A stretch of 30,712 bases of DNA, the filler included, from an uncultured virus (IMG/VR IMGVR_UViG_2049941000_000697) (lineage: Duplodnaviria > Heunggongvirae > Uroviricota > Caudoviricetes). It is 14 parts of one record of this genome, joined end to end, with 100 filler letters (N's around TTAATTAATTAA, not from the genome) between each part and the next. Parts side by side here need not be neighbours in the genome. Positions count along the whole stretch, not along the records: positions 23,894 to 28,198 come from IMGVR_UViG_2049941000_000697; 13 more parts are not named here. One strand, given 5' to 3'. A program made the position numbers and the translations under genes. Every line of letters begins with the position of its first letter. Position 1 is the first letter of the stretch. Shown one piece after another: positions 784 to 28,298 of the stretch. Under the pieces are notes generated by a model, which was given only the letters and a program-made list of their open reading frames with translations, did not search any database and was not told the origin of the DNA.

Positions 784-883
784 NNNNNNNNNNNNNNNNN
801 NNNNNNNNNNNNNNNNNNNNNNNNNNNTTAATTAATTAANNNNNNNNNNNNNNNNNNNNNNNNNNNNNNNNNNNNNNNNNNNN
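784..883. other. Artificial contig-joining linker (44 N + TTAATTAATTAA + 44 N); 13 copies
   Basis: Same 100-nt block, with stops in all six frames, at 784, 2953, 5534, 8886, 12294, 15984, 18596, 20551, 21273, 23088, 23794, 28199 and 29951. Confidence 0.98.
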
Positions 884-2451: not shown

Positions 2452-2952
2452 TTCAGCACCACCGCTATGCCCGTCGCGGCCCCCACGTAAGCGAGCGCGG
2501 TGCCGAGCATCTTGGAGTTCTTGATGACTTCCGTCAGGACGTTCGCGAAGGCGCTTGCCTTCTCTACCGCCGGCAAAAAGGTCTTGGCCAGCGTCTCGCC
2601 GAATGCGATCGAGATCCCCTCCGCGGCGCTGGCCAGCCGGCGCAGCGATCCGCNNNNNNNNNNGCCGAATCGACTGCGATTCCCAGATCGCCGTAAACGT
2701 TCTGCAGGGTTTCGGCCAGCGAGGCCGCCTCCCGCATCTGGTCGTCGTTGATCTTCCCCTGACGCGCCAGCTCCTGCAGCTGCTGCAGCCGCTTGAAATC
2801 GTCCTGGTGCTGNNNNNNNNNNGCCGCAGCCGCCTTGGCCGCTTCCGCCTCCCGGGCGAAACCTTCTTCCGAGAGCTCGACAGCCTTCCGGCAGGCGTAG
2901 ATGCCGGCGGCCAGTGCGATCAGCGCCACCGTCACCGGGTTCGCCGCGAGCC
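2452..2952 (-). CDS. Tail tape measure protein, three internal fragments including hydrophobic segments
   Basis: SAAEGISIAFGETLAKTFLP..., LAANPVTVALIALAAGIY..., KRLQQLQELARQGKINDDQMREAASLAETLQNVYGDLGI; split by 10-N gaps. Confidence 0.8.
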
Positions 2953-3052
2953 NNNNNNNNNNNNNNNNNNNNNNNNNNNNNNNNNNNNNNNNNNNNTTAA
3001 TTAATTAANNNNNNNNNNNNNNNNNNNNNNNNNNNNNNNNNNNNNNNNNNNN

Positions 3053-3372
3053 AGGGTCGGCACGGTCACGCCGGCGTAGAGCTGCGCCATCTCGCCGAGG
3101 AAGGTGCCGTCGATGACGCCCTGGATGTCGTCGGTCGTCACGTCGCGCCAGGGCGCGGGTTCCTCGGGCACGTCGAGATCGGGATCGTCCTCCGGATCCG
3201 GGAACGTCGCCGCGGGCGCGGGATGGCGTGCCGCCGCGGCGATGAGATCCACCGTGTTCGCGATCACCGGAGGAAGCTGCGCGCGCCACTCCGGATCGCG
3301 AAGTTCGCGGAGATCGTGCCAGTTTTTGCCCTTGCAGCCGTTGTGATGGCAGGTGAAGCCGATCGCGCCGTT
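3053..3372 (-). CDS. Primase/DUF3987 helicase, internal fragment (Zn-binding CHHxxC and linker)
   Basis: NGAIGFTCHHNGCKGKNWHDLRELRDP followed by an acidic Pro-rich linker. Confidence 0.65.
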
Positions 3373-3544
3373 NNNNNNNNNNNNNNNNNNNNNNNNNNNN
3401 NNNNNNNNNNNNNNNNNNNNNNNNNNNNNNNNNNNNNNNNNNNNNNNNNNNNNNNNNNNNNNNNNNNNNNNNNNNNNNNNNNNNNNNNNNNNNNNNNNNN
3501 NNNNNNNNNNNNNNNNNNNNNNNNNNNNNNNNNNNNNNNNNNNN

Positions 3545-3678: not shown

Positions 3679-3977
3679 CGACGATCGTCATGAAGTACCG
3701 GTGCCCGTAAGCCACGGCGAAGATCCCGCTGCGGGATAGGATCGAGGTCTTGCCGGTGCCGCGCGGCGCCGATTCCGCCTGAAATCCGCCCTTGAGGATC
3801 CCCCGCTGGATCTCCTTGATGATCTCGATGTGATCCTGGCTCCAAGCGAGCAGAAACGTGTGCGGGAAATAGGTTTCGAGGAACAGCTGCAGGTTCCGCC
3901 GGCAGCGCTCCCGGCGCTGCGGATCCTTCACCTTCGGGATCGGACCGATGTCGCGCCCGGAGAGGCTCGCCCCGGCC
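3679..3977 (-). CDS. Terminase large subunit (GpA-like), N-terminal ATPase fragment
   Basis: GRDIGPIPKVKDPQRRERC...ETYFPHTFLLAWSQDH...APRGTGKT Walker A. Confidence 0.8.
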
Positions 3978-3987
3978 NNNNNNNNNN

Positions 3988-4109
3988 GTCAGCGCCCCTT
4001 CCGCCGCCTGCAGCGCCTCTTCCTCGACCTCCCGGGGCATCTTCTCCCCGCCCTTCCGGGGCTTCCCGGAGATCTCCTCCGTGGCCTTTTTGCGATTTTT
4101 CGGATCCAT
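3988..4109 (-). CDS. N-terminus of a packaging-region protein (terminase N-terminus or small subunit)
   Basis: ATG at 4109 with GGAGG upstream; Lys-rich MDPKNRKKATEEISGKPRKGG; adjacent to the terminase fragment across a 10-N gap. Confidence 0.4.
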
Positions 4110-10943: not shown

Positions 10944-11304
10944 TTATTTGGTGGGTTGGGTTTCGGTTTCGGGTTTGGTTTCGTAGGTCGCCTGCCATGC
11001 GGCGATGAAGGCGTTCCAGTCGAGCGGGAGCTCCTGCGGCATCCCCTCGAAACGACGTTTCGCGATCTGGGGGCCGTCGATGCCGCCGCCGTCGGTGATG
11101 ATGATGCGTTCGCCGCCGTCGCGGCCGATGGCTTCGGTGCGGACGTCCTTCTTGTTGAAGCCGGCGTCCTCGGCGGTCTTTCGCACGCGCCGCGTGGCAA
11201 AAAAGACGCCGTCGGTCGATTCGACCAGGATGTCCATCGCCTTCTTGTAGAGCCGGGGCTGGAACTGGTCGTACTGGCCGATGNNNNNNNNNNAGAATGG
11301 ACAT
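10944..11304 (-). CDS. AAA_24/Sak4-like ATPase: start (MSIL, 11304) and C-terminal fragment
   Basis: YDQFQPRLYKKAMDILVESTDGVFFA...GGERII...AKRRF...ELPLDW; the Walker A/B piece is at 12057-12293. Confidence 0.8.
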
Positions 11305-12393: not shown

Positions 12394-12755
12394 CGGGGGG
12401 TGTTCGTGCCGTTTTCCCAGCCGCAGACGGTGGATTCGGCCACGCCGACCGCCTTTGCCAGCTGCAGCATCGTCAGCCCCGCGTTCGTCCGCCGCAGGTA
12501 CAGCGCCGCGCGGTCGAAGGTAGCCGGGTCGGGCACCGCCTTCGCCGGGGCGTCCCCGTAGCTCGCGATCTCGCTCTCCGGACACCGCAGGATCGCCGCC
12601 AGCTTCGGGATCTTGTCGGGACGCGGCTTCAGATACTGGTGCTTCGCCCATTTTTGGGCGGTCTGCTTGGTCACGCCGCAGGCCGCGGCAATGTCGTCGA
12701 ACGTCAGCCCGCGCGCTTCGCGGATGCGCCGGAAATTCTCTTTGTGGAAGATCAT
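12394..12755 (-). CDS. XRE-family regulator 3 with two tandem HTH domains, 3' truncated
   Basis: IREARGLTFDDIAAACGVTKQTAQKW and LRRTNAGLTMLQLAKAVGVAESTVCGWENGTNTP. Confidence 0.85.
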
Positions 12756-12756
12756 G

Positions 12757-12952
12757 TCATGCCTCCCTTCCGGCGATCATCTCGAATTTCAGCGCCAGCT
12801 GACGCAACAGCTTGGCCATTTCGCGCAGCTCCTGCGGCGACACGTCGTTCTGCCGTCCGTCGCCATAGGTGGCGATCTCGTTTTCCGCGCATCCGAGCAC
12901 GGCGGCCAGTCGCGGGATGCGGCGGGGGCTGGGTTGGAATCGCGGCATCGTC
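12757..12952 (-). CDS. XRE-family regulator 2, C-terminal fragment
   Basis: QPSPRRIPRLAAVLGCAENEIATYGD is paralogous to KPRPDKIPKLAAILRCPESEIASYGD; stop abuts the XRE3 start. Confidence 0.75.
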
Positions 12953-20650: not shown

Positions 20651-20911
20651 GGTGCTGCGGAATCCGCTGTACGCCGGCGAGATCCACTACGCGGGGAAGG
20701 TCTATCCCGCGGAGCATCCGGCGATCGTGGACCGGGAGTTGTGGGAGGAGGTGCAGCGGCGGCTCGCGGAGGGGAAGCGCCAGAGTTACGCGCGGCACGG
20801 GGTGCCGCAGCACGATTACCTGCTGTCCGGGCTGGTGCGCTGCCACTGCGGCCACCAGATGACGGGCTACTCGGTGCCGGGGCGGAACGGCAGCAGATTC
20901 TTCTACCACAA
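20651..20911 (+). CDS. Large serine integrase (recombinase and Zn-ribbon domains), internal fragment
   Basis: VLRNPLYAGEIHY...HPAIVDRELWEEVQRRL...YLLSGLVRCHCGHQM. Confidence 0.9.
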
Positions 20912-23893: not shown

Positions 23894-24641
23894 AGCCGCC
23901 GCTGGAAACGACCATGCTGCCGCCAGCGGAAACCGTAGTGTTCGATGCGGTCGCGCCGTTGCTGACGAACATACTGCCGTTCACGGTGGCATCGGTAACG
24001 TTCGCGCCATCAAAGAGCGTAATACGCGCTCCGGCACTTACCGTTAACACAGTCATACTGGCAAGACTGACCGCCATNNNNNNNNNNGAGGCAAGGTTGC
24101 TGGCGATGCCACCGGACAGCACTCGCATGAAGCCGCCGCTGAAAATGACGGTATCGCTTGCGATGCCGCCGCTTGATGCCCGAAAAATCGCGCCGCTGGA
24201 AACAGTTACGGCAGAGGCGATGCCACCGTTTAGGACATTCCCTTCTGTTCCATAAAGCGTCCTTTTTGAGAGGCTATGCGATACAACAAGACCATTTTTT
24301 GCCGACCCGCTGGATACGAAAAGATAGAAAGCGGAGGTTTCTCCCTCGNNNNNNNNNNGTTCCGCGCTCAACGGAAAGAGTGCCGCTGTCAACGGTCGGG
24401 GCAACCGCAACACCGCCGACATAGACCTGTAACTGCCCGTTCGCGTGGGCGAGGTTCGTGTTGCTGGCGATGCCGCCGCCCGAAACGGAAACATACCCGC
24501 CCGAAACCACGGTCTGCCCGGTGGCAACGCCGCGATTGTACACGGTAACATGGTTTGCGACCTCGCCGACCCCAATCGTGCCGCCCGTGTAGGTCATAGC
24601 CGAGGTGACGAGGATACCAGCAGAATCAACGATAACACCAC
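23894..24641 (-). CDS. AIDA-repeat beta-helix protein, three internal fragments
   Basis: NGGIASAVTVSSGAIFRASSGGIASDTVIFSGGFMRVLSGGIAS; VSNGATASNTTVSAGGSMVVSSGG; TVVSGGYVSVSGGGIASNT. Confidence 0.8.
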
Positions 24642-24779
24642 NNNNNNNNNNNNNNNNNNNNNNNNNNNNNNNNNNNNNNNNNNNNNNNNNNNNNNNNNNN
24701 NNNNNNNNNNNNNNNNNNNNNNNNNNNNNNNNNNNNNNNNNNNNNNNNNNNNNNNNNNNNNNNNNNNNNNNNNNNNNNN

Positions 24780-25271
24780 TTGATCACGCGATACGGCGTC
24801 CCGAATTCGTTGGTCGGGTTCGTGAATCCGGAGATCAACACCACCGGCACGCGACAGCACCAGGCCAGCCAGGAGAGCCCGCTCGAAAGCCCGATGAAAA
24901 AATCCGCGTCCTTGATGAGATCGATCCGCTCCTGCAGCGGAAGGTCGCCGGTGAAGTTCTCCGCGCCGTAAGGCAGATAATTCCAGACCGGCGAGCAGCC
25001 GTGCTCCGGTTCGCGATCGATACACAGCACCCGATACCCATTCCGCAACAGAAAATCCACTACTTCGCGCCAACCGTGGGGATTGTTCCAGTATTTCGGC
25101 TGGCTACTGGCGTGGGCGCCGATGCAGACGTACTTCTCCCGGATCCGGCGCGGCGCCGAAAGATCGACCAGGGGCGCCTCATCCGCGAGATCCGCGCCCG
25201 TCAGACCGAGGATGTGCCCCGCCGTCTTGTGCAGGCCGATGAACCGGTAGTCGTAGGGCTGATTGTCCTCG
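24780..25271 (-). CDS. Autotransporter strand-loop-strand O-heptosyltransferase (TibC/Aah family, GT9-like), internal fragment
   Basis: QPYDYRFIGLHKTAGHILG...SAPRRIREKYVCIG...QPKYWNNPHGW...GYRVLCIDRE...VWNYLPYGAENFTGDLPLQERIDL...FFIGLSSGLSWLAW...PVVLISGFT.P.NEF.TPYRV matches recalled TibC/Aah motifs throughout; frame extends well upstream of the track's start. Confidence 0.9.
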
Positions 25272-25281
25272 NNNNNNNNNN

Positions 25282-25457
25282 TGTCCGTCGTTCTCGATGA
25301 GTTCGACGATCTTCTCCCGGATCTCGGCCCTGGTCTCGGTGGTGATGCAGCCCGTGGTGGCGTACATCATGGTCATGGCAAAAACGATCAGCAGCAGCAC
25401 GACGACGACTGCACCGATGGCTTCCCCGTGATTTTTGACGATACTCCAGATCTTCAC
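25282..25457 (-). CDS. Membrane or lipoprotein, N-terminal part
   Basis: GTG coupled to the upstream stop; hydrophobic AIGAVVVVLLLIVFAMTMMYA followed by TTGC. Confidence 0.6.
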
Positions 25458-25777
25458 TTCTTGTCTCCTTCCTTTTGATGGAACGGGCAGCGCTCGATGT
25501 GCTCCCCGATGGCGGCCTTGATCTCCCGCTGGATGTCCTCTTTGTCCCAGAGTTTCCCCTCCAGCCGGGCGATGTCAACCTTAATGGATTCCAGCGCCGC
25601 CCGGATGGTGTTCAGTTCTTCCGGCAGCGTGCCGAGTTTCAGCGTGATCACCCATTTCCCCACGGTGATGATAAAGCCGAAAGCGATGATCCCCAGAAGT
25701 ATCAGCGTTACGACCTGAACCGGGGTTATTCCTTGCGCCACTTCGACGATGGTTTCCGGTGTGACTTGCGGATTCAT
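25454..25777 (-). CDS. Single-TM coiled-coil protein (holin-like position)
   Basis: VVTLILLGIIAFGFIITVGKWVI TM segment, then coiled coil and HIERCP; coupled to DUF1353. Confidence 0.6.
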   Translation of the reverse strand: MNPQVTPETIVEVAQGITPVQVVTLILLGIIAFGFIITVGKWVITLKLGTLPEELNTIRAALESIKVDIARLEGKLWDKEDIQREIKAAIGEHIERCPFHQKEGDKK

Positions 25778-26163
25778 CACTCCCCACTCTCCACGGCGAT
25801 CAAGCTGGCGTTCGATTGCCATACCACCCAGCCGCCGATCCTGACACCGAGATAGGCCTTGAGCGCATGATAGACCGAAAGTCCGTCCTCGATGAGAAAA
25901 CAGATGAACATCAGATCGGCCTCGGCCCGGGTCCAGCCATCAGGCTGGGTGCGGTAGATCCAGTCGTGCGCCACGGCGGCGCGGACGGCGCGCGGGTCGA
26001 GCGGCGGGCAGACCGTGCTCCAGAAGAGGCGCGGGACGGAGGCACCGTCAGATTCAAAACCGCGTGGGATGAAAAAGGTCTTCCCCCGAAACGTGATCTG
26101 CGTGGCGGTCAGCGTGGTCAGCACGTTGCCGCGCGCGTCCTCCAGGTGGATATCGATCTTCAT
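25777..26163 (-). CDS. DUF1353 domain protein
   Basis: FIPRGFESDGASVPRLFW...RAAVAHDWIY...TRAEADLMF...AYLGVRIGGW. Confidence 0.9.
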   Translation of the reverse strand: MKIDIHLEDARGNVLTTLTATQITFRGKTFFIPRGFESDGASVPRLFWSTVCPPLDPRAVRAAVAHDWIYRTQPDGWTRAEADLMFICFLIEDGLSVYHALKAYLGVRIGGWVVWQSNASLIAVESGE

Positions 26164-26582
26164 TCAGCCGCCTCCACTCCCCGCCAGCATTCGTACCACC
26201 ATTTCGGCTGGTCGAGTCCGATTTTTCTGCCGAGATACACGCAGAGGTCATTCGCCGCCGACCACGCTTGCGCGAATTGCATCCCCTCCAGCGTACCCCA
26301 AACGGAGGCTTTGCGGAGTTTTTCCATCTCATCGAAGCCGCCGTGGAATTTATCGTCCCCGATAGCCGCGCCGATTTGCTGGCAGACCGCCCGGAACTGC
26401 TGACACGCCGCTTCAAATTCGGCGCGTCTGTGGTCGTAGTCATCATCCCGCCACATGGTAAACCCGTTTTCGGTTCGCCATTCTTCACTCACCCACGGGT
26501 TGAATTTCCAGCCTTCGCTCTCGCCATCGGTGATTTTGATAGCGTCCGGTGCTTTTTCGCCTTTGCTGTTATACCACGACAT
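26160..26582 (-). CDS. Hypothetical protein downstream of the AIDA-repeat gene (fibre-chaperone position)
   Basis: Complete 140-aa ORF with AAGGAGG RBS. Confidence 0.7.
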   Translation of the reverse strand: MSWYNSKGEKAPDAIKITDGESEGWKFNPWVSEEWRTENGFTMWRDDDYDHRRAEFEAACQQFRAVCQQIGAAIGDDKFHGGFDEMEKLRKASVWGTLEGMQFAQAWSAANDLCVYLGRKIGLDQPKWWYECWRGVEAAE

Positions 26583-26594
26583 TTTGACCTCCTT

Positions 26595-27908
26595 TTAGCC
26601 CAGCGGCGGGGACACCGTACCGCCGTCAAGCANNNNNNNNNNCATTGTTCACGTTTTCGGCATAGCCGCCGCTGGAGATGAGCATCACGCCATTGGGTTT
26701 TACCTCCACGGTCGAGGCATTTCCCCATATAACCGCCGACCCACCGCTCTCAACGGTAGTGATGTCTGCCACGCCGCCGCTGGAAACTTGCAGAACGCCG
26801 CCGCTGGATACGGTGGTGGTGCTCATCATCACGCCGCCNNNNNNNNNNNNNNNNNNNNNNNNNNNNNNNNNNNNNNNNNNNNNNNNNNNNNNNNNNNNNN
26901 NNNNNNNNNNNNNNNNNNNNNNNNNNNNNNNNNNNNNNNNNNNNNNNNNNNNNNNNNNNNNNNNNNNNNNNNNNNNNNNNNNNNNNNNNNNNNNNNNNNN
27001 NNNNNNNNNNNNNNNNNNNNNNNNNNNNNNNNNNNNNNNNNNNNTCCGCGTAGCCGCCGCCAACGACTTGCATGATGCCGCCATTCATAGGAGAAGTGAC
27101 GCCGCTCGCAACACCTCCATTGGAAACGTACATTGAACCGCCGCTGGAAACAACGCCGCCATTCGCCACGCCCCTGCTGGAAACATGGAACCTCGCTCCG
27201 CTTGACACAATAGCCGCGTTCGCAACCCCGCCGCTCGACACCGTGACCGTGCCGCCCGAAGTCAACACCGCAGAGGTCGCAACGCCGCCGCTGGAAACAG
27301 TCAGTATACCGCCGACACCAACACCGTTGATTTCGCTCTCCGTTACGGTGACAACGCCCGACTGGGTAATCGTCCCGCCCGAAATGATGGCGTTGCTGGT
27401 GGCATTCACANNNNNNNNNNATAACACCACGGGTGGCATCGAAAGTCTTGGACACCTCCGCAAGAAGCACCCTCGCGTCAGAAGACCAAGTGAAGTGAAC
27501 AAGGTATCCTGTGTCAGCCTCGTCCATCGCAGGGGGCATGTTCTCGCTGGAATACGACTGCGGATACCAGTCCACAGCCGCCCACCAAATCGGGTGATGG
27601 TCTCCCAAAAGAGCCAACTGCCGGACGGTCGCGCCTTGGAAAACCAATAGGTCAAAGGAGTAGTCCTCAAGCGAATCCACCGCGCCGATGCGAACGGTCA
27701 TGTCGTTCTCCAAATTGAGAACATAGAGATAGCCATTCTCGCCCAAAAAATCACCCGTGACGGTAACGTGTTTCTCGCCGTACCGAGACTCCCATTCAGA
27801 GCCATTGTAAGCCACGGTCGTCCCGGGCTGGGTCGCGGTGGGGAGCCCTCCTCCGCCGGATTCGCCTTCACGAAATTCGTCAAGATATTTGTCATAAATC
27901 GGTTTCAT
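26595..27908 (-). CDS. AIDA-repeat beta-helix protein (putative tail fibre/adhesin): N-terminus, repeat fragments and C-terminus, gapped
   Basis: ATG at 27908 with GAGGAGG RBS (MKPIYDKYLDEFREGESGGGGLP...); 19-aa periodic VSSGG repeats at 27045-27410 and 26643-26838; ends LDGGTVSPPLG* at 26595; continuity across gaps is inferred. Confidence 0.7.
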
Positions 27909-27918
27909 GGCAGCCTCC

Positions 27919-28140
27919 TCAATCCGCGACTTCGACGGTTCTGGTTTCATTTTTGGTCAGATCGTATTCGATGGTCGCTCGATTTGCCCATGCGCCGTAC
28001 CCCCAGAAGATCGTGGAGACGGTCCCCTCGGTCGTGATTTTGTGGATCGGCTGCGCCGCCTTTTCGGCATGATCGAAGGCGATATAGGTCACTGTTTCGC
28101 TCGCTTCATCAATCAGGTGAGAATGTTTTTTCCCCGACAT
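27919..28140 (-). CDS. Small hypothetical tail-region protein (GAWANRATIEY)
   Basis: 73-aa ORF directly upstream of the AIDA-repeat gene; frame is also open upstream to the linker, so the start is uncertain. Confidence 0.65.
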   Translation of the reverse strand: MSGKKHSHLIDEASETVTYIAFDHAEKAAQPIHKITTEGTVSTIFWGYGAWANRATIEYDLTKNETRTVEVAD

Positions 28141-28298
28141 GCTATTGAATCGTTCGGGGTTCAGGTCGTTCCGGTTGCCGAAGCAGTCGATGATTACGNN
28201 NNNNNNNNNNNNNNNNNNNNNNNNNNNNNNNNNNNNNNNNNNTTAATTAATTAANNNNNNNNNNNNNNNNNNNNNNNNNNNNNNNNNNNNNNNNNNNN

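Follow-up and report, generated by a model that had tools for sequence, protein, structure and literature searches.

We analysed a 30.7-kb stretch of DNA (the window) from the uncultured tailed virus IMGVR_UViG_2049941000_000697, in which a fragment of a gene for a TibC/Aah-family O-heptosyltransferase lies on the same scaffold as several pieces of a gene for an AIDA-type repeat protein, here called the fibre after the role that we propose for it. The window is a pseudomolecule: 14 scaffolds are joined by N44-TTAATTAATTAA-N44 spacers (artificial joins at window positions 784-883, 2953-3052 and 11 further places), and the scaffolds are themselves split by runs of N. Since they are merely concatenated, neighbouring scaffolds say nothing on genomic adjacency. 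The sample of origin is cattle gut, and the G+C content of the phage genome or bin is ~60%. Both genes are on scaffold 12 (23894-28198), which consists of eight contig pieces. Their parts are listed here in the order established below, with positions in Logan record 3 where these apply.

24780-25271, minus strand: TibC/Aah-family O-heptosyltransferase fragment, 163 aa, equal to TibC residues 176-333.
27421-27908, minus strand: fibre residues 1-162, N-terminal beta-sandwich domain with the ATG at 27908 (from translation and the AF2 model).
24359-24641, minus strand: fibre residues ~161-253; misplaced, belonging at the '10 N' gap at 27411-27420 (record 3 2533-2805, directly after 2532).
27045-27410, minus strand: fibre residues ~265-385, the clearest 19-residue repeats, xVSSGGVAxxxxxxSGGxx (TIGR04415 57.9 bits, PF16168 32.1 bits; record 3 2836-3201).
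24088-24348, minus strand: fibre rod piece, misplaced (TIGR04415 37.7 bits; record 3 3250-3510).
26643-26838, minus strand: fibre rod piece (TIGR04415 37.1 bits; record 3 3705-3890).
23894-24077, minus strand: fibre rod piece, misplaced (TIGR04415 40.8 bits, PF16168 30.4 bits; record 3 3899-4082).
26595-26632, minus strand: last 11 codons of the fibre and its TAA stop at 26597-26595 (from translation).

The small contigs within scaffold 12 are wrongly ordered, and the gene layout seen there is an artefact of assembly. Linkage was checked by aligning to scaffold 12 the Logan contigs from runs that hold the TibC fragment, among which X1 and X2 are probably the source sample. One X2 contig of 14,305 bp and even depth (22.6) contains all eight pieces of the scaffold. 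Along it, the TibC fragment is followed by 237 nt, 28198-27421, 24631-24359, 30 nt, 27410-27045, 48 nt, 24348-24088, 194 nt, 26828-26643, 8 nt, 24077-23894, 42 nt and 26632-25282, and then by almost 9 kb more. A 2,274-bp contig of X1 carries the identical join from TibC (24780) to 28198, and a 12-kb contig of the same run the identical fibre order. By comparison with the full-length homologue in the related viral contig L001 (see below), ~207 of the 237 nt complete the transferase gene and ~20 nt are left before a small open reading frame (ORF), whose end is 10 nt from the fibre ATG. The fibre start at 27908 corresponds to Logan record 3 position 2045 and the stop to 4162, which gives 705 in-frame codons over 2,118 nt. 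The true order is thus TibC, small ORF, a 705-residue fibre gene, a 140-aa ORF, DUF1353 and two membrane proteins. Taken at face value, the scaffold would put the transferase after lysis-like genes and split the repeats over two or more scattered proteins. A single in-frame gene means that there is one repeat protein and not several, and that the transferase is upstream of it.

Database proteins tell the same order. A search with the 162-residue N-terminal domain of the fibre (the N-domain) retrieved P0001 (100% identical), P0002 (639 aa, 88%) and P0003 (947 aa, 86%), the latter two being full-length orthologs. In P0001, which stems from another assembly, the N-domain leads straight into the 24639-24361 piece and then into 27409-27047; the product of 24359-24641 is 100% identical to P0001 residues 161-253 and 92-96% identical to P0002 and P0003. 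We also considered a second repeat protein downstream of TibC, in a host-like order; it was ruled out by these three proteins together with the Logan contigs. Runs X5 and X6, from other studies, yielded no more than short stretches of TibC and a single 185-nt one of DUF1353, and hence no independent support for linkage. Summed contig depth rose at 24902-25045 to 40.6 and 69.1, compared with ~18 and 23 elsewhere, and a T>C variant was seen at 24925; the extra depth comes from other TibC genes of the sample, probably host copies, piling up on the most conserved part of the gene. Gene order within gap-rich scaffolds that carry repeat genes is, as this case teaches, not to be trusted.

The fragment at 24780-25271 belongs to the TibC/Aah family, as an earlier note on this DNA had recognised from its motifs. 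The Aah/TibC equivalog profile TIGR04414 scored 245.3 bits on 24782-25270 of the minus strand (cut-off 200; profile positions 163-322 of 374), PF01075 scored 39.3 bits, and the alignment to residues 176-333 of the solved TibC structure (4RB4) had an E-value of 8.5e-60. The translation runs without a stop and contains every one of the quoted motifs. TibC, which acts on TibA in enterotoxigenic Escherichia coli, and Aah, which acts on AIDA-I in diffusely adhering E. coli (the BAHT family; PDB 4RAP/4RB4), are true sequence relatives of the window enzyme. According to PMC4358343, ADP-heptose is contacted in TibC by Thr226, Lys230, Arg286 and Trp305, Asp110 is the catalytic base, Cys339/342/358/370 form an iron finger, and Phe265 and Val266 of the thumb serve the dodecamer contacts. 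The same source gives residue 300 as Pro in TibC and Ser in Aah, where the Ser lets the enzyme take both heptose epimers. K230, R286 and W305 are retained in the window enzyme and T226 is replaced by Ser, which preserves the hydroxyl; residue 300 is an Aah-like Ser (P300S); and the beta-hairpin thumb region aligns without gaps, with V266 retained and Pro at F265. The L001 homologue, 80% identical, covers TibC residues 9-386 (E 5e-124) and keeps Asp110 as well as all four cysteines. Full-length homologues score 526 bits (L001) and 539 bits (the provirus L002) with TIGR04414, and both contain the PF21129 TibC_1st barrel. Among 50,697 GenBank phage records, the TibC fragment found only 4 matches, at 30-44% identity. 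In a quick tree of the enzymes (L007 excluded for an internal stop), the window fragment groups with L001 outside a tight cluster of 68 host copies, and phage copies sit on long branches.

The repeat protein was recognisable too. Of the five repeat pieces, four exceeded the 30-bit cut-off of TIGR04415, and a period of 19 residues stands out (lag-19 identity 0.373 in the piece 27047-27409, against a mean of 0.136 over lags 5-44), so that the Ser-rich 19-residue repeat described earlier stands for those four; the fifth piece (24361-24639) gave a weak AIDA-I match only. The rod pieces in the window hold 15 SGG motifs, and the 19-residue repeat with xSGG turns is a trait shared with TibA and AIDA-I. 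In TibA, the acceptor residue has been mapped to Ser-313, which is part of an NSGG turn (eLife paper). TIGR04415 scored 84.8 bits on P0002 and 82.4 bits on P0003, and the C-terminal end of the fibre resembles those of P0002, P0003 and P0008. An AF2 model of P0002, the 88%-identical ortholog and not the gapped window protein itself, is an all-beta rod with pLDDT ~90. Its eight best PDB matches (E 1e-12 to 4e-11, 20-26% identity) are all Ag43 (4KH3, 7KO9, 7KOH, 7KOB) or the 'TibC-catalyzed hyper-glycosylated TibA' (TibA55-350, 4Q1Q), and the next match falls to E 2e-3. As modelled on this ortholog, the rod is a single-chain right-handed beta-helix of the kind found in TibA and Ag43.

What distinguishes the window protein from the adhesins is how such a rod would be held. 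Ag43 and TibA rods are exported, barrel-anchored passengers, whereas the window rod would be anchored, if at all, by its N-terminal phage domain. The N-terminus of the fibre is acidic (MKPIYDKYLDEFREGE...), the maximum 19-residue hydropathy in the N-domain is 1.02, and a hydropathy scan, used in place of a dedicated predictor, found no signal peptide or transmembrane segment. There is no C-terminal autotransporter barrel, the protein stopping 11 residues after the last repeat piece, and Pfam recognised no barrel family in the window pieces, in P0002 or P0003, or in the AIDA proteins of L001 and L002. A fibre with neither signal peptide nor barrel stays in the cytoplasm, where virions are built.

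The N-domain itself is rare: a search of 1.84 billion representatives gave 15 relatives, in which it stands by itself, ahead of an AIDA rod, or at the C-terminal end of another protein. In one further protein, P0005 (6,060 aa), 23 separate stretches match it; judging from these matches, the fibre-type beta-sandwich can apparently also form a long tandem array. AF2, run on the N-domain with an alignment of 11 sequences, gave a beta-sandwich core with pLDDT ~90. Five of its best six VIA fold matches (Z 6.0-7.1) are phage spike, tailspike or baseplate proteins, the next match being at Z 4.3. The core matched CBA120 TSP4 and related domains over 88-97 residues (Z 6.1-7.1); the TSP4 part in question, residues 79-180 (PDB 7RFV/7REJ), serves branched tailspike attachment, and at 7-14% identity the likeness is a lead and not a sign of membership. 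In the ESM Atlas the N-domain found viral hypothetical clusters only, and a T4_gp9_10_N lead there scores 0.89. The N-domain probably anchors the fibre to the tail. P0002 had no match among the GenBank phage records (low-complexity filter on), no relatives of the N-domain were found in IMG/VR, and a search with an alignment of AIDA-rod fibres returned the L001 and L002 contigs again and nothing further. Two of 251 genomes of the order Victivallales carry the N-domain, at 26-30% identity, from which it follows that prophages of exactly the window type are rare among species representatives.

The remainder of the window is that of a tailed phage. Pfam matches were obtained in 9 of the 150 longest ORFs, and other scaffolds carry fragments of a minor-tail/tape-measure protein, a lambda-type portal, a head-tail joining protein, a gpT-like capsid, a gpA terminase, a serine recombinase, DUF3799 and a helicase. 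The large serine recombinase fragment (20652-20909, plus strand) and a fragment of a Cro/CI-type helix-turn-helix protein (12396-12776, minus strand) suggest, as far as sequence goes, a temperate lifestyle.

Ten loci in IMG/VR carry relatives of the enzyme, and two of them, L001 (enzyme 80% identical) and L002 (75%), share tail-region genes with other window scaffolds. L001, a 20-kb contig, encodes a 760-aa ORF with no family match that is probably the tape measure, five ORFs (two of which match window scaffold 13), a 730-aa AIDA-repeat protein, TibC, and a homologue of the small ORF, which we call up92. L002, a 68-kb provirus rated 100% complete, encodes a 688-aa AIDA-repeat protein, TibC and a collagen-like tail fibre (phrog tail-fibre families, E 1e-64), and its capsid is 59% identical to the capsid fragment in another window scaffold. 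A TibC gene beside an AIDA-repeat gene is thus kept in three phages. The pair that had been sought in the tail region of a complete provirus is there in L002, beside the tail-fibre gene, and Logan order together with L001/L002 synteny locates the window pair in the tail-fibre block. The physical link between enzyme and repeat protein in a phage, on which the earlier note hung its proposal, is borne out by the 14.3-kb contig of uniform depth and by this synteny, and neither linkage nor synteny placed the pair on a host chromosome. L001 and L002 have in common with the window the enzyme, the adjacent barrel-less AIDA protein, tail genes and the capsid; they differ in that their AIDA protein is upstream of the enzyme and has no 162-aa N-domain, whereas the window fibre is downstream and has one.

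Two side observations concern the fibres of these relatives. The protein preceding the AIDA protein (479/482 aa; L002:5896-7341, L001:5698-7134) shares its first 210-250 residues, at 28-32% identity, with the collagen-like fibre (L002:10650-12548); alternative fibres, all fitting one attachment site on the tail, would be expected to share their N-termini in this way. After the up92 homologue of L001, an ORF at 11018-11251 starts with the motif M..K.D..LG..RE.D..LP, as do the window fibre and P0003, before the contig ends after 78 codons, and L001 may therefore carry a second fibre of the window type.

Other viral loci place TibC-like genes in different company. On 255-329-kb IMG/VR contigs (L003:2906-7396, the same as L005) the gene adjoins a DUF7487 protein and a 1,497-aa SNF2 helicase that is interrupted by an intein and LAGLIDADG domains. 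A Mom-family protein (PF25680) is directly upstream of it in a 5.5-kb viral contig (L004:467-1174). A 79-kb viral contig has a sugar island (L009:2123-10403) with a 908-aa FkbM methyltransferase-GT4 fusion, a 904-aa methyltransferase-GT9/TibC-like fusion, a GT2 and a UDP-galactopyranose mutase.

The chromosomal relatives of the enzyme point to the host. We surveyed one genome per species and found 157 stretches with relatives of the fragment; the figures on loci that follow refer to the best 79. These (68-75% identical) are all in Lentisphaeria/Victivallales metagenome-assembled genomes (MAGs) or unlabelled gut MAGs, and the phage host is probably a gut Victivallales (Lentisphaerota) bacterium. 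According to BLAST, the gene that follows the host TibC encodes a giant AIDA-repeat protein in 24 of the 79 loci; where at least 1.5 kb of downstream sequence was available (65 loci), the next ORF had at least 400 aa in 35 and a 19-residue period in 23. All eight neighbour proteins examined contain PF16168, with Ig, FN3, FG-GAP, RHS or RTX modules, and none of the eight has an autotransporter barrel. Host enzymes are near-alike, in contrast to the long-branched phage copies, and the neighbouring AIDA proteins, of the same repeat family as the fibre, range from 600 to >3,200 aa and carry extra modules. Directly after Victivallales TibC in three loci (L082:10691-20485, L087:10691-20476, L080:10716-17807) we noted giant proteins of 2,364 to >3,265 aa in which AIDA repeats are combined with Ig-like, FN3, CarboxypepD_reg, SdrD_B, RHS and DUF6531 domains and which have no barrel. 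The giant proteins would represent a type of BAHT target for which E. coli offers no described example. Enzyme and rod thus commonly occur together on chromosomes of the clade to which the host probably belongs, and the phage is likely to have obtained its pair from there, in keeping with the capture that the earlier note had supposed. As for the sugar donor, an RfaE-domain-I heptose kinase was detected in three of three Victivallales genomes at 248-342 bits, below the cut-off of 345, and no such kinase is encoded by the complete provirus L002; with no heptose kinase in the provirus, the donor would come from the host.

Around the pair, the cassette contains five further genes.

27919-28198, minus strand: small ORF up92, ~95 aa, between transferase and fibre; its first 2-3 codons are past the scaffold end.
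26160-26582, minus strand: 140-aa ORF (p140) directly after the fibre, preceded by an AGGAGG site.
25777-26163, minus strand: DUF1353 protein, 128 aa (PF07087 60.2 bits; phrog_1158 'tail assembly chaperone', E 5.6e-21).
25454-25822, minus strand: protein with a single transmembrane segment (hydropathy 2.70 at residues 37-55) and a charged helical tail, putatively holin-like or spanin-like.
25282-25457, minus strand: small protein with a single transmembrane segment (hydropathy 2.85) and a TTGC lipobox-like motif, running into a gap.

The up92 product is 34% identical to the ORF that follows TibC in L001 (10742-11011); it has no family match in Pfam, NCBIfam or PHROGs, and its nearest ESM Atlas clusters are viral hypothetical proteins. 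The 140-aa ORF likewise has no match in those three family collections and no relative in IMG/VR, and over its N-terminal 43 aa it shares 46% identity with an ORF beside a gene of the N-domain type (fibN) in a Victivallales MAG (L090). The DUF1353 gene, two genes downstream of the fibre, had been named correctly from the outset. The genes called 'holin-like' and 'lipoprotein' do encode one hydrophobic segment each, and neither has a family match in Pfam, NCBIfam or PHROGs to back those names. The cassette is probably the late operon of a tailed phage, and that phage is probably temperate.

Aah and TibC act on their substrates in the cytoplasm, prior to export, and the heptose on AIDA-I and TibA is required for stability and adhesion. 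We think it probable, on balance, that the fibre receives heptose from the enzyme of the same phage while both are in the cytoplasm, and that virions bear a beta-helix coated with sugar. The fibre would consist of an N-terminal beta-sandwich acting as tail anchor, an AIDA/TibA-type beta-helix rod and a short C-terminal end. Late in infection, the phage enzyme would take ADP-heptose from the host and add heptose to serines in the xSGG turns of the rod, in parallel to the action of TibC and Aah on TibA and AIDA-I before export, and the sugar coat would stabilise the rod, shape adsorption, or both. Because the fibre is folded and assembled in the cytoplasm, the site of both enzyme and ADP-heptose, self-heptosylation is the simplest reading. 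As in the BAHT loci described in the eLife paper, the enzyme gene is upstream of the substrate gene. Unlike TibC-TibA and Aah-AIDA-I, the predicted substrate lacks both signal peptide and beta-barrel and starts with a phage-type domain, a small ORF separates the two genes, the setting is a phage late operon and not an adhesin operon, and the activity is a predicted one.

Several observations weigh against self-heptosylation. The heptose on the fibre is a predicted one. The fold matches of the N-domain have Z-scores of 6-7, a range that the tool calls common, and Foldseek E-values of at least 0.014. In all five further viral loci examined (L003, L004, L006, L008, L009) the TibC-like gene has no AIDA-repeat neighbour, which means that the enzyme family is not tied to this substrate in phages. 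Most host genomes own a TibC, and a phage copy is not obviously needed; their GmhA scores 65-111 bits, below the cut-off of 209. The contigs that establish linkage are an independent assembly and not an independent sample, and the grouping of window and L001 enzymes has an SH-aLRT value of 86, below the mark of 95. Finally, the first ~175 and last ~70 residues of the window enzyme fall into gaps, taking Asp110, the N-terminal barrel and the iron finger out of sight, and T226 and the thumb residue F265 are Ser and Pro. These last points also speak, along with the long branches of the phage copies, for a transferase that is an inactive or re-purposed remnant, with a fibre that is unglycosylated or modified by the host enzyme only. 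We hold this to be decidedly unlikely: a mere 163-aa fragment without a stop exceeds the cut-off set for the full-length family, the L001 and L002 enzymes are full-length at 526-539 bits and the former retains D110 and the four Cys, and the position beside an AIDA-repeat protein is conserved in three phages.

Other explanations concern the target of the enzyme, the place of the rod or the assembly. The phage enzyme might mainly modify the giant AIDA-repeat surface proteins of the host, altering the surface and blocking superinfection in the manner of phage O-antigen glycosyltransferases, the fibre being merely alike. Such lysogenic conversion or receptor masking, already raised in the earlier note, is a live alternative, if an unlikely one. 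Lysogeny is likely given the serine-recombinase fragment in the window and the L002 provirus, and Victivallales TibC is indeed paired with giant AIDA proteins (24/79 by BLAST, 23/65 by period, 8/8 by PF16168); against this, the host already owns the enzyme, only ~20 nt separate the phage gene from the small ORF and fibre that follow it in what is apparently a late structural operon, and in L001 and L002 the enzyme is placed between fibre genes. It is quite unlikely, too, that the AIDA-repeat protein acts outside the virion, with or without sugar, as an adhesin or aggregation factor that stays in the cytoplasm or is set free on lysis. The protein has no signal peptide or barrel for export, its gene stands between tail-region genes and the DUF1353 and lysis-like genes, the fibN domain is also the C-terminal end of other phage-like proteins beside a p140 homologue, and the AIDA proteins of L001 and L002 adjoin fibre genes with shared N-termini; in favour of a non-virion role are the weak fold support for the N-domain (Z 6-7) and a rod of the self-associating adhesin type. 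An artefact of assembly or binning, with transferase and repeat contigs of the host chromosome mis-scaffolded among phage genes, is largely refuted and in our view exceedingly improbable. The scaffold is demonstrably mis-ordered, its apparent order (TibC, then repeats) resembles the host operon, and depth doubles at 24902-25045 from other TibC genes of the sample, yet an independent 14.3-kb contig of even depth joins TibC, the small ORF, the fibre, DUF1353 and the membrane proteins. Moreover, L001 shares the small ORF that follows TibC, none of the best 79 host TibC loci has a phage gene of the window, L001 or L002 within 10 kb, and the window enzyme is 80% identical to that of L001 and at most 75% identical to host copies.

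The self-heptosylated fibre allows one bolder extension, which is a long shot. The fibre might be a heptose-coated mimic of the host's self-associating adhesin rods and bind its receptor through homotypic, glycan-dependent docking of rod on rod. The receptor would then be the giant heptosylated AIDA-repeat surface proteins of the host, and the phage's own BAHT would supply the matching sugar pattern. If true, no protein-O-heptosylated virion would have been known before it, and the phage would recognise its host in a new way, by adhesin mimicry.

Full-text literature searches, whose coverage leaves out subscription-only journals, found no paper on a phage-encoded BAHT, and the sugar-coating of a phage's own tail fibre by a heptosyltransferase has probably been shown for no phage so far. 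New here are a fibre downstream of the enzyme with a tailspike-like N-domain, the proven linkage of the two genes, the corrected scaffold and the picture of the host operon. Mycobacteriophages reportedly encode glycosyltransferases that modify their own virion structural proteins; enzyme families, sugars and substrates are other ones there, the hosts are actinobacterial, and neither a BAHT nor an AIDA-type rod is known to be involved. To our knowledge, BAHT enzymes are known only for glycosylating autotransporter adhesins of proteobacterial pathogens. Should the fibre be heptosylated, it would be the first heptose-modified virion protein and the first non-autotransporter substrate of a BAHT, as well as an example of virion glycosylation outside actinophages. 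The pair would then offer a two-gene system in which to study what hyper-heptosylation does to a beta-helix rod, in terms of stability, protease resistance and adsorption. Beyond the phage, the enzyme-rod pair is common in Victivallales, a gut clade of the PVC group, where it sits on giant surface proteins that are not autotransporters.

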